Shown piece by piece: positions 25,255 through 28,681 of a stretch of 64,000 nt of DNA. The notes beneath the pieces were generated by a model. That model saw only the letters and a list, made by a program, of their open reading frames with translations. It had not been told where the DNA came from and ran no database searches. Within the stretch, counting starts at the first letter, position 1. Every line of letters begins with the position of its first letter. The DNA is from Corallococcus exiguus (GTDB taxonomy: Bacteria; Myxococcota; Myxococcia; Myxococcales; Myxococcaceae), in the NCBI RefSeq assembly GCF_051058965.1, contig NZ_CP183924.1; one strand, 5' to 3'. A program made the translations under genes and the position numbers.

Positions 25255-26688
25255 ATGGCCTCGAAGATCAACGACAGCTCGCGTCCCCTCACCTCCGTCT
25301 CGCGGCTGTCCTCGCAGGACGCCCGGACGACGGATGCGAAGTCCCGGAACCGCCCTCTCGCATTCAAGGACGGCTTCGAGTCCTCCGGCAGCACGCGCCC
25401 CGCGCCCGGCCAGCTGCCGCGGCTGCCCGCGCCGCCTCCGATCCTGGGGCTGCCCGCGCCCACCACCCCGACGCCCGCGCCGACGACGCCGGTGCCTCCG
25501 GAGGCGCCCACCGAGCCGCCCGTTTCGGTCGACTCGGATCCGATGACGCACCTCGAGTACCTGGCCTCGGACGCGCTGCAGGGACGTGACAGCCCCTCCG
25601 CGGGCCTGGATGCCGCTTCCGTCTACGTGCAGGCCCACGCGGAGAAGTACGGGCTCGTGGGGCCCAACATCAACAACCCGGAGAACCCCTTCCAGCAGAA
25701 GTTCAACGTCTACTCGTGGCTGGGCGCGGAAAAGGCGGGCGAGACGGCGGGCGCGGCGCACGCAGGGCATGCCGAGCACAAACAGTTCGGCCACACGATG
25801 TTCCAGGAAGGCTTCTACCTGGACGAGAAGATGCCCAAGGACACGCTGAAGAAGCTCAACCAGCAGTACGAGCAGACGATGAAGGCGGCGGGCCAGTCGG
25901 TGGTGCCGGCGCGCGCGGGCAAGCAGCGCAGCGTGGAGGAGCTCAAGCAGGTGGCCGCCGCCACGGGCCAGGCGGTGAACACCATGGCCATGCTGCCCGG
26001 CACCGGCCCCCACAAGGACGAGGTCATCGTGGTGATGGCCCACCTGGACCACGTGGGCGTGGACCGCAAGGGCAACCCGTACAACGGCGCGGACGACAAC
26101 GCGTCCGGCAGCGCGGTGCTGATGGCGGCGGTGCCGGAGCTGGCGGAGGCCGCGAAGAACGGCAAGCTGGACCGCTCCGTGCTCTTCATCTGGACGGGCG
26201 CGGAGGAGAAGGGCCTGGTGGGCTCGCAGTACTTCGTGGACCACCCCATCCCCGGCCTGGAGCTGAAGAACATCGCCGGCGTCATCAACACGGACATGGT
26301 GGGCCGCTGGGATGATCAGCGCCTGTCCGTGGTGGACACCAACACCAAGGGCCAGCCCAACTACTTCCGTGACGTGGTGGACCAGGCGAACCAGCAGCTG
26401 GCGGATCCGTTCGACCGCATCAACCGCGACATCAACGTCTACCGCGACCGGCAGGACGGCGCGTCCTTCGGGCGCAAGGGCGAGGACGTCCTCTTCCTCT
26501 TCGAGGGCCTGTCCAACCCCGAGGGCGGCGGCGACCTCATCCCGGAGTACCACCGGCAGGATGACGACATCGACAAGATCATCGAGGACAACGGCGGCAA
26601 CAAGCCCCGCCGCGTGAAGGACCTGCTCCTCAACGTCATCAACATCGCGGCGAACCGCACGACGGAGCCGCAGCAGCAGCCGAAGTAG
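25255..26688 (+). CDS. M28-family zinc peptidase (aminopeptidase-like) with a Pro-rich N-terminal extension
   Basis: M28 metal ligand motifs HLDHVG and GADDNASG, plus NTDMVG. The first 95 aa or so are Pro/Thr-rich with no classical signal peptide. Confidence 0.8.
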   Translation: MASKINDSSRPLTSVSRLSSQDARTTDAKSRNRPLAFKDGFESSGSTRPAPGQLPRLPAPPPILGLPAPTTPTPAPTTPVPPEAPTEPPVSVDSDPMTHLEYLASDALQGRDSPSAGLDAASVYVQAHAEKYGLVGPNINNPENPFQQKFNVYSWLGAEKAGETAGAAHAGHAEHKQFGHTMFQEGFYLDEKMPKDTLKKLNQQYEQTMKAAGQSVVPARAGKQRSVEELKQVAAATGQAVNTMAMLPGTGPHKDEVIVVMAHLDHVGVDRKGNPYNGADDNASGSAVLMAAVPELAEAAKNGKLDRSVLFIWTGAEEKGLVGSQYFVDHPIPGLELKNIAGVINTDMVGRWDDQRLSVVDTNTKGQPNYFRDVVDQANQQLADPFDRINRDINVYRDRQDGASFGRKGEDVLFLFEGLSNPEGGGDLIPEYHRQDDDIDKIIEDNGGNKPRRVKDLLLNVINIAANRTTEPQQQPK

Positions 26689-26704
26689 CTGACCGCGGCA
26701 CCCT

Positions 26705-26729
26705 CCGCCGGAAGGAGCACTTCCGGCGG
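26705..26729. terminator. hairpin terminator downstream of the M28 peptidase gene
   Basis: A perfect 10-bp stem, ccgccggaag / cttccggcgg, with a 5-nt loop, 17 nt after the stop. Confidence 0.45.
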
Positions 26730-26805
26730 GAGCATCCAGCGGGGACAGCGGGACCGCTAGGACGTGTCCGCAAATAGTTCGAGTGGAGCCGGGTGTTAGG
26801 AGGGC

Positions 26806-27264
26806 ATGAGCCGAGGAGAGCTGACGGACGCCCAATGGGAGCGGCTGGCAGGACTGCTGCCGCCCCAGAAACCCGCGCGGGGCCGACCGAACAAGGACCA
26901 CCGCGAAGTGCTCGACGGAATCCTCTGGGTGCTGCGCACCGGAGCGCCCTGGCGCGACGTGCCTCGGGAGCAGTTCGGCAGTTGGAAGACGCTCAGCAGC
27001 CGATTCTACCGCTGGCAGGAGGCAGGCATCTGGGCGCGGGTGCTGCGGCAGTTGCAGGCCGAAGCGCACGAGGATGAGCACCTGGACTGGACGCTGCACT
27101 TCCTGGACGCCAGCGTCATCCGCGCCCACCAGCACGCAGCCGGCGCACGCGGCACGCCGGTAAAAGGGGGGAGGCTGAAGCGCTGGGTCGCAGCCAGGGA
27201 GGCTTCTCGACCAAGCTGCATGTCCGGGCGGAGGGCCAGGGGCGGCCGCTCGTCTTCGAGCTGA
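26806..27264 (+). CDS. IS5-family transposase OrfA (N-terminal part)
   Basis: MSRGELTDAQWERLAGLLPPQKPARGRPNKDHREVLDGILWVLRTGAPWRDVP matches the conserved IS5 N-terminal region. DASVIRAHQHAAGA is also present. Confidence 0.75.
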   Translation: MSRGELTDAQWERLAGLLPPQKPARGRPNKDHREVLDGILWVLRTGAPWRDVPREQFGSWKTLSSRFYRWQEAGIWARVLRQLQAEAHEDEHLDWTLHFLDASVIRAHQHAAGARGTPVKGGRLKRWVAAREASRPSCMSGRRARGGRSSSS

Positions 27265-27626
27265 CGGCAGGCCAACGCCATGAGACGCAGGCCTTCAAGG
27301 CGCTGATGGCGGGTGGCAGCGTGCCGCGCGCGCACTCACCGGGGGCGCCACGCCGCTTGCCCGACGCCCTCGCGGCGGACAAAGGCTACAGCTACCCCAG
27401 CCTCCGCGCCTGGTGCCGCGAACATGGGGTGCACGCCATCATCCCCACTCGCTCGGACCAGCCCCGGCAGCGCACCTTCCGGCGCGCGGCCTACCGCAAA
27501 CGCTGCCGGGTGGAGTGTCTCTTCAATCGCTTGAAGCAGAACCGGCGGGTGGCGACGCGCTATGAGAAGCGCGCCGCCAACTACCTGGCGATGGTCCATA
27601 TCGCCTCCATCCGCCTCTGGCTCTAA
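27171..27626 (+). CDS. IS5-family transposase OrfB segment (in -1 frame relative to orfA; OrfAB fusion expected by frameshifting at aaaagggggg, 27162-27171)
   Basis: The -1 frame reads EAEALGRSQGGFSTKLHVRAEGQGRPLVFELTAGQRHE...DKGYSYPSLRAWCREHGVHAIIPTRSDQ...RYEKRAANYLAMVHIASIRLWL. These are the IS5 DDE C-terminal motifs. The fused product would be about 274 aa. Confidence 0.65.
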   Translation, partial: EAEALGRSQGGFSTKLHVRAEGQGRPLVFELTAGQRHETQAFKALMAGGSVPRAHSPGAPRRLPDALAADKGYSYPSLRAWCREHGVHAIIPTRSDQPRQRTFRRAAYRKRCRVECLFNRLKQNRRVATRYEKRAANYLAMVHIASIRLWL

Positions 27627-27640
27627 TTTGCGGACACGCC

Positions 27641-28525
27641 CTAGGCGGCCAGCTTCTCCCCGCTGCCTTCCACGGGCCTGCCGGAGAGCGCGGCGACCTC
27701 GTGCTCGCTCAGCACGAGCTTCTCTTCAGAGCCGCTCCAGACGAACGGGATGCCCGGCTGGCGGTACAGGTTCGCGGGGATCTCCTGCGCCAGCTGCGCG
27801 TGCAGCTCCGGCAGCTTGGACCAGTGCAGACCGTGCCGCGTGTGATGCGCGGTGTGGTAGCCCAGGTTGCCCGTCATCAGGTTGTAGCCCTTGTGGAGGA
27901 TGTTGTACGAGGCCTCCGAGTGGTTGGCCGTCTCCAGGCCCACGTGGTGGAAGTACGTGGCCCAGGTCGTCACGTAGAGCGACGCCATCATGGGCAAGAG
28001 GAACACGAAGAGCGCGTTGTAGGGGTTCACCCAGAACAGGCCCGCCAGCAGCACCACCTGGAGCGCGGCCATCCACACGAACACGCGCAGCGCCTTGGGG
28101 TGATGCTTCTTCCCCACGTGGAACGCGCGCGAGTACGCGGTCAGCGCCGTGCTCAGCGAGTACTCCACCTCCCCCATCGTCGAGCCGTCATCCCGCTTCC
28201 AGCGCGACTCGTCCTGCGTCTGGTCCAGGTAGTTCTTGTGGTGGCCCAGCACGTGGTGGAGGAACCACGCCTGCGACGTCACGCCCGTCTGGAAGCCGAA
28301 GACGATCTCCAACAGGCGGTTGGGCAGCGCGTGCTTGAAGAAGGACAGGTGCTGGTGGTGGTGATTCCACGAGCAGATCCATCCCTTGGGGATGATGCCC
28401 AGCCCGAACCACAGCACCGGCACCCACCAACTGCGCGCCGTGAGGAACACCGTCAGGTCGAGCGCGAACACGCCAAGGAACATCAGGACCGGGATGCGAT
28501 CTTCAGGGTGCCGGAACAGGGTCAT
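27641..28525 (-). CDS. membrane fatty-acid desaturase / hydroxylase-family protein (three His boxes)
   Basis: His boxes HHHQH, HHVLGHH and HTAHHTRH, with TM segments. The start is MTLFRHPEDRIPVLMF. The stop codon TAG (27641-27643) lies inside the IS target duplication. Confidence 0.75.
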   Translation of the reverse strand: MTLFRHPEDRIPVLMFLGVFALDLTVFLTARSWWVPVLWFGLGIIPKGWICSWNHHHQHLSFFKHALPNRLLEIVFGFQTGVTSQAWFLHHVLGHHKNYLDQTQDESRWKRDDGSTMGEVEYSLSTALTAYSRAFHVGKKHHPKALRVFVWMAALQVVLLAGLFWVNPYNALFVFLLPMMASLYVTTWATYFHHVGLETANHSEASYNILHKGYNLMTGNLGYHTAHHTRHGLHWSKLPELHAQLAQEIPANLYRQPGIPFVWSGSEEKLVLSEHEVAALSGRPVEGSGEKLAA

Positions 28526-28681
28526 GGGCTTCCGAGACAAGTGGGCCGGGGAAAAAATGCCGCTTTTCCAACTGTAGGCTGCATTCCCCACCCCGAACAG
28601 CCCGCCCTTGTCCGCCTGCACGTTCCACACTGGCGGTAAACCACGTAGTCACGTTGAACTTGTATTTCCACATTTCCAAGA

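Follow-up and report, generated by a model that had tools for sequence, protein, structure and literature searches.

A complete, probably active IS5-family insertion sequence at the stop codon of a desaturase gene in a Corallococcus exiguus-like myxobacterium

How does an insertion of 880 bp come to lie exactly on the stop codon of a gene, leave the encoded protein unchanged, and itself carry a transposase gene that is split between two reading frames? These questions arise where a gene for a fatty-acid desaturase ends in the genome of a Corallococcus exiguus-like myxobacterium (contig NZ_CP183924.1; "the window" is the whole 64-kb stretch of DNA that was analysed). Our analyses lead us to hold, with high confidence, that the locus carries an IS5-family insertion sequence, complete and probably active, whose architecture is that of the IS427 group. 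An initial annotation of the window had read the region in much the same way, as an IS5-family element of the IS427-group arrangement, and most of what it claimed could be upheld, with amendments to the length of the target duplication, the wording of the frameshift site and the nature of a neighbouring hairpin. The element is an ordinary member of a known group, and its significance beyond annotation is small. With its filled and empty forms and a sister copy all available, the locus offers a clean, dated polymorphic insertion in Corallococcus that could be used as a strain marker.

The family is told most plainly by the transposase. Two overlapping frames, orfA and a -1-frame orfB, are open in the element as the initial annotation had proposed, and orfA joined to the -1 frame at a run of four A and six G residues (A4G6) gives a fusion of 273 amino acids (aa). 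This fusion scored 293.5 bits with the NCBIfam model NF033580, "IS5 family transposase" (cutoff 110), in a match that covers positions 2-258 of the 258 in the model, and its scores with other IS5-family NCBIfam models fell below cutoff. Pfam matches were obtained to DUF4096 (PF13340, 1.2e-30), DDE_Tnp_1 (PF01609, 1e-15) and DDE_Tnp_1_2 (PF13586, 4e-12). In addition, the fusion is colinear with homologues from other phyla that are each encoded within one open reading frame (ORF), and D101, D192, E237, Y230 and K244 are invariant in the alignment. The signature Y(2)R(3)E(6)K, a hallmark of transposases of the IS5 family and superfamily, can be read directly in the sequence as YRKRCRVECLFNRLK. 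The DDE triad is divided, and because D101 is encoded in orfA and D192 and E237 in orfB, only the fusion is able to be catalytic; in IS427-group elements the complete triad is likewise present only in the fusion (PMC3281130). The fusion protein could take either of two forms (...VKRGEAE... or ...VKGGEAE...), and neither had an exact match in the protein collection. The curated model, the triad and signature, the inverted repeats and the empty site described below all fit, and the element is a member of the IS5 family.

The borders of the element are equally well marked. Between the two copies of CTAG (26757-26760 and 27641-27644) lie 880 bp (26761-27640), or 882 bp if a terminal G and C are included in the element, and just inside them are imperfect terminal inverted repeats of 17 and 18 bp, which match at 15 of 16 positions without a gap and then differ by one insertion or deletion (indel). 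This pair was the longest inverted repeat of the region in a repeat search (I1), in agreement with the coordinates and with the size and repeats first described. The only exact matches in the window to a 13-nucleotide (nt) core of the repeats are the two ends themselves, and the left repeat is kept in nine complete and several partial copies of the element. The orfB stop codon (TAA, 27624-27626) falls within the right repeat.

The empty site was found by an exact look-up of the 294-aa desaturase, which led to two assemblies of conspecific Corallococcus exiguus, GCA_003668965.1 and GCA_012985235.1. Both read ...gggaccgCTAGgcggccagc..., the very allele that had been predicted for an empty site, with a single CTAG, and their flanks are 99.6-99.75% identical to the window in two alignment blocks that meet at the CTAG. 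The desaturase gene converges there on a gene for an M28 family peptidase across a spacer of 68 bp, which bears out the suggestion that the insertion had parted two convergent genes that formerly shared about 70 bp. The desaturase coding sequence is untouched, the identical protein being encoded in the empty-site strains, and its ORF ends at a TAG that is the complement of 27641-27643, so the right-hand CTAG does supply the stop codon and preserve the frame. Since the site is empty in near-identical conspecific flanks, the insertion is a recent polymorphism within one species.

Copies elsewhere, which the initial annotation had led us to expect, were found in a scan of one genome per species and by an exact look-up of orfA. 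The latter gave a copy that is 100% identical at a different locus, on a 1.2-kb contig of run SRR28060074 where it adjoins a gene for a PD40-repeat protein. More divergent copies, 82-97.5% identical, were found in C. carmarthensis, Corallococcus sp. RDP092CA, C. exercitus and C. praedator, and C. soli has one in this range as well; a complete copy that is ~84% identical was present in a metagenome-assembled genome of Archangium, and Cystobacter fuscus has a partial copy (91% identical) that comprises the element's final 161 nt. C. carmarthensis has three complete copies as well as a collapsed 888-bp contig of high coverage, and such collapsed high-coverage contigs (787-888 bp) indicate several copies per genome. 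Altogether, related copies were located at at least 12 other sites, every one of which is flanked by CTAG, as are all nine complete copies and all of the partial ends. In C. praedator (L012, 3314-3547) there is also a partial inverted copy about 1 kb from a complete one; it is ~234 nt long and shares 85% identity with the element's 3' end.

Table 1. Positions in the window of the insertion sequence, its parts and its surroundings
Feature	Position	Strand	Remarks
orfA	26806..27264	+	152 aa; DUF4096 DNA-binding region and first catalytic Asp, D101
orfB part, -1 frame	27165..27626	+	D192, E237 and Y(2)R(3)E(6)K signature; frame open from 27078
A4G6 recoding site AAAAGGGGGG	27162..27171	+	orfA frame to -1 frame; zero-frame codons GTA AAA GGG GGG
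Left terminal inverted repeat	26761..26777	+	GACGTGTCCGCAAATAG (given also as gacgtgtccgcaaatag)
Right terminal inverted repeat	27623..27640	-	CTAATTTGCGGACACGCC (given also as ctaatttgcggacacgcc); letters as on + strand
Left CTAG	26757..26760		TA 26758-26759 probable left duplicate of target; G 26760 probable first element base
Right CTAG	27641..27644		C 27641 probable last element base; TA 27642-27643 right duplicate
Fatty-acid desaturase gene	27641..28525	-	294 aa, WP_121751432.1; PF00487 FA_desaturase, 2.7e-28
M28 family peptidase gene, convergent	25255..26688	+	477 aa
Perfect 10-bp GC-rich hairpin (I19)	26705..26729	+	17 nt past peptidase stop, 31 nt before element
CTAG sites in window	1683, 13791, 24063, 26757/27641, 29519, 35562, 40393, 40462, 48916		

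How the element entered its site turns on how much of the target was duplicated. The claim of a CTAG duplication stands insofar as CTAG is on both sides here and single in the empty site; what probably does not stand is its length of 4 bp. CTAG is palindromic, so the filled and the empty sequence come out alike whether 4 bp (CTAG) are duplicated or 2 bp (TA, by an element ending in G...C), and it was the more distant relatives that favoured TA. Six of these have non-palindromic flanks and read xTAG...CTAy, with the boundaries between TA and G and between C and TA: each has the same inner G...C, with a variable base outside it (tTAG..CTAc in L052, cTAG..CTAt in L068 and L073, tTAG..CTAg in L038 and L020, and cTAG..CTAc in L069). 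Based on these relatives, the duplication in the Corallococcus-type element is probably TA, and the element would then extend from 26760 to 27641, its 882 bp ending in G...C. The direct repeats reported for IS427-group elements range from 2 to 4 bp. Precedents in the group are in keeping with a duplication of TA, as elements captured in Paracoccus have mostly 2-bp repeats (PMC3281130, Table 2), and the direct repeats of ISPaes2 are TA (PMC3832669). The element would recognise CTAG, cut around the central TA and duplicate it, and its 5'-G...C-3' termini would rebuild CTAG on both sides. Here it entered the single CTAG with which the desaturase gene closes (...GCC TAG on the minus strand), within the 68 bp that separated the convergent genes, and the stop codon was regenerated with the desaturase protein unchanged. 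If it is TA that was duplicated, the stop codon is of mixed origin: the target supplies its TA, and the element's last base supplies its G.

The alternative, a genuine 4-bp duplication of CTAG by an element of exactly 880 bp with GAC.../...GCC ends, strikes us as unlikely, though it has points in its favour. CTAG...CTAG surrounds every one of the 14 insertions of this type, the filled and empty sites are just what it calls for, the base just inside the CTAG differs between variants (G or A) while CTAG is constant, and a direct repeat of 4 bp has been reported for ISPha1 of the IS427 group (PMC3281130, Table 2). In addition, the choice between 2 and 4 bp draws on relatives with 30-65% protein identity, all flanks of the Corallococcus type being CTAG, and a metagenome scan for the ends TANRNCGTGTCCGCAAA, in which flanks other than CTAG were sought, returned 120 stretches with one real element (L088), which was flanked by CTAG. 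What tips the balance towards TA is that the six relatives have differing tetranucleotides on their two sides around a constant inner G...C, which is impossible by a 4-bp duplication, together with the 2-bp repeats of most captured IS427-group elements and the TA of ISPaes2 (PMC3281130, PMC3832669).

The second question concerns the split transposase gene. Its slippery run is A4G6, as the heading of the initial annotation had it, the string quoted there (gtaAAAAGGGGGGag) having one A too many. Among the relatives that were fetched, 30 loci place orfB in the -1 frame; they belong to Myxococcota, Alphaproteobacteria, Actinomycetota, Chloroflexota and Planctomycetota, and in all except two of them a run of the form A(3-7)G(1-7) is located exactly at the junction. 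This conserved layout fits the published description of the IS427 group (PMC3281130), to which the arrangement had been assigned. Better evidence came from the ratio of nonsynonymous to synonymous substitution rates (dN/dS) among Corallococcus lineages that all have the split layout and have diverged to a dS of 0.5-1.0. The ratio is 0.02-0.21 in orfA codons 1-120 and 0.07-0.15 in the -1 frame downstream of the run, whereas in the zero-frame tail of orfA (after codon 120) it is at least 1.8 or there are no synonymous changes at all, i.e., there is no selection on the tail. Purifying selection thus follows the trans-frame path and switches frame at the run, which argues that the split gene is functional, that selection acts on the fusion and that the frameshift is programmed rather than a defect; frameshifting in the IS5 family is also acknowledged in the recoding literature (PMC5009743). 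Translation would start at 26806 and pass to the -1 frame at A4G6 (27162-27171), either by ribosomal slippage or on transcripts into which RNA polymerase had inserted one nt, and the resulting 273-aa product would unite the DUF4096 part and first Asp of orfA with the second Asp and the Glu of orfB. Without the shift only the 152-aa orfA product would be made, presumably a regulator.

Several observations pull the other way and should be set beside this evidence. Conservation of the motif is by itself weak evidence for a programmed frameshift, because the run partly reflects conserved Lys-Gly-Gly coding and some single-ORF relatives also have it. No significant stimulatory RNA structure was detected downstream of the slip site, where the window sequence folded no better than shuffled sequences (z = -0.48) and a consensus fold had one compensatory pair among 22. 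In the probable source genome the M28 peptidase and the desaturase have consecutive protein accessions (XWU93524 and XWU93525), which suggests that the transposase was given no protein there and may be marked as a pseudogene. A single-ORF variant of the element occurs in C. soli, and both the trans-frame protein and the transposition of the element are predictions from DNA sequence.

The C. soli variant is instructive in itself. Its transposase (WP_193428485.1; L084/L085, Corallococcus soli / ZKHCc1 1396, 1501-2322) is a single ORF of 273 aa, and the frames were joined through one additional G, which lies ~30 nt downstream of an A4G6 run that has been retained. The variant is situated between paralogous Ser/Thr kinase genes, with flanks that are 79% identical to each other.

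As to the route by which the frame is changed, ribosomal slippage has a competitor in slippage of RNA polymerase on A4G6, by which one nt would be added in a fraction of the transcripts, and we consider this competitor improbable without being negligible. The A AAA G within the run permits -1 slippage by a single tRNA(Lys), a motif that is used in IS3-type elements, and for slippage by the polymerase to be efficient, runs of 4-6 bases are short. Favouring the polymerase are the nature of the site, a pair of homopolymers whose zero frame GTA AAA GGG GGG departs from the tandem X XXY YYZ, the lack of significant structure downstream of A4G6, and the documented occurrence of transcriptional realignment in some insertion sequences (PMC5009743). 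The literature on the IS427 group presumes that frameshifting is translational (PMC3281130). That the frameshift is an inactivating homopolymer indel and the copy a dead relic is very hard to credit: homopolymer runs are hot spots for indels, C. soli holds a single-ORF relative and the transposase apparently has no protein accession in the probable source genome, but lineages at a dS of ~0.5-1 all retain the -1 layout with both frames intact and a dN/dS of ~0.1 on either side of the junction, the single ORF of C. soli stems from its extra G with the A4G6 run still kept, an identical copy exists at a second site, and the insertion is polymorphic among strains 99.6-99.75% identical. The split transposase therefore deserves annotation as a programmed-frameshift gene, not as a pseudogene.

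There remains the position on a stop codon, for which the choice of target offers an account. At 70% G+C, the window minus the element has nine CTAGs where 173 are expected from base composition, a depletion of ~19-fold, and four of these nine native sites are TAG stops of genes supported by Pfam matches, namely those for a DUF5995 protein, an SLT-domain protein, the desaturase and an SLOG-cluster4 protein. The insertions show the same bias, as seven of the 14 of this type coincide exactly with the TAG stop of a gene that has Pfam support; the genes so hit encode the desaturase, a PD40 protein, a diadenylate cyclase, a WD40 protein, a pseudouridine synthase and a convergent pair, Poly_export and inositol monophosphatase. 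In this last case one CTAG is the common stop of the convergent Poly_export/SLBB and inositol monophosphatase genes, and it is occupied in both C. carmarthensis (L008) and C. exercitus (L010). The two elements are 82% identical and in opposite orientation within flanks that are 95% identical, and these differences in variant and orientation point to two independent insertions at one orthologous site. Since CTAG is very rare at this G+C content and often forms a TAG stop, the position at a stop codon is a by-product of target preference for which no special explanation is needed. More generally, the targeting of CTAG places such elements at gene ends of high-G+C genomes with coding sequences undamaged.

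A further thought is that the stop codon serves as a safe harbour, i.e., that the rebuilding of CTAG is a selected property of the IS427-type lineage instead of a mere by-product. We offer this tentatively and regard it as possible while somewhat doubtful. Because the G...C termini and the TA duplication rebuild CTAG on both sides, a TAG stop on either strand survives the insertion. In myxobacterial genomes of 70% G+C, where CTAG is ~19-fold depleted and roughly half of the CTAGs left are stops, such rebuilding would keep insertions nearly neutral and would steer independent insertions to a small set of shared orthologous sites.

It is far less probable that the position is functional and that the element is kept for an effect on the 3' end, termination or antisense regulation of the desaturase and peptidase genes: two convergent genes have indeed been parted from a common 68-bp spacer and the only hairpin has been shifted by ~0.9 kb from the desaturase stop, but target preference alone accounts for the position, two conspecific strains with otherwise near-identical genes lack the insertion, and the hairpin is not a canonical terminator. 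The initial annotation had placed a hairpin terminator after the peptidase gene. The hairpin is there, and its role as a terminator is an assumption, as no T-run is present at 26705-26729 (the transcript would lack a U-tract) and a terminator scan makes no call there. Any effect of the insertion on the 3' ends of transcripts would be conjectural.

Some smaller features complete the description of the locus. A Shine-Dalgarno-like AGGAGG (26798-26803) is located 2 nt before the ATG of orfA (region 26796-26808). A scan for sigma-70 promoters across 26500-27900, the left end of the element included, found none, a scan that is uninformative for a myxobacterium, and read-through from the M28 peptidase gene, which is on the same strand, could contribute to transposase expression. 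The mechanically derived ORF of the desaturase runs 35 codons upstream of the recorded start (ATG 28525) to a GTG (28526-28630, minus strand), and an exact look-up of this GTG-started version of 329 aa gave no match.

Placed among known systems, the element has its closest parallels in the IS427 group, e.g., ISPaes2, IS1248 and ISPam4 of Paracoccus, with which it has in common short imperfect inverted repeats, two overlapping ORFs and a conserved frameshift motif, as well as its size class (832-865 bp in Paracoccus, compared with 880/882 bp here) (PMC3281130). The CTAG flanks also agree with the group. The duplication of TA reported for ISPaes2 is probable for our element too (PMC3832669), whereas the host, a myxobacterium, sets it apart. 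In a search for reference members of the group (ISPam4, ISPaes2), a local tblastn against 90 kb from plasmids of P. aminophilus gave no match. A named relative was instead found on a Nostoc plasmid, where an element annotated by its depositor as "ISSoc13, transposase orfB" encodes a protein 56% identical over 96% of the window transposase, has ends of the form CTAG followed by GGGCGTGT..., and shows A5G5 where its frames meet, at the corresponding junction; an ISfinder output table places ISSoc13 in IS5/IS427 (PMC9670130), so that the link to the group is an indirect one through the depositor's annotation. No close relative with a name of its own in ISfinder was seen, and the close C. soli relative (90% identical) bears only the generic RefSeq/GenBank name "IS5 family transposase". 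Its single ORF has a counterpart in ISPha1 of Paracoccus halophilus, a natural single-ORF variant within the frameshifted IS427 group (PMC3281130), unlike the window copy, which retains the two-ORF layout.

The namesake of the family, IS5 of Escherichia coli, itself about 1.2 kb long and the type of the IS5 group, belongs to the same family, with a DDE transposase and a CTAG-like target, and the IS5 group differs from the window element in having a single ORF and a true 4-bp duplication. Direct repeats of the four bases CTAG are described as typical of IS5-group elements (PMC9241763).

Elements of the ISMra2 type, from Methylobacterium, are relatives with a different solution at the junction. 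Their transposases are 57-65% identical to that of the window and their ends are CTAG followed by GGGCGTCTCTGCAAAG, but orfB occupies the +1 frame, with ATC GGG GGG TGA as the junction. In ~14 Methylobacterium/Methylorubrum relatives (L028-L045) orfA ends ...ATC GGG GGG TGA and the conserved continuation, GEGTVEG.GEALGRS, is in the +1 frame, an arrangement reminiscent of prfB, in which +1 frameshifting takes place at a stop codon. At two loci of Methylobacterium (L021 and L049) the "TG" is missing and the -1 frame is used. One relative of this type (L206; NC_010510.1, 406864-407701) has a RefSeq coding sequence of 838 nt, not a multiple of three, with a protein accession, evidence that annotators already treat the ISMra2-type gene as recoded.

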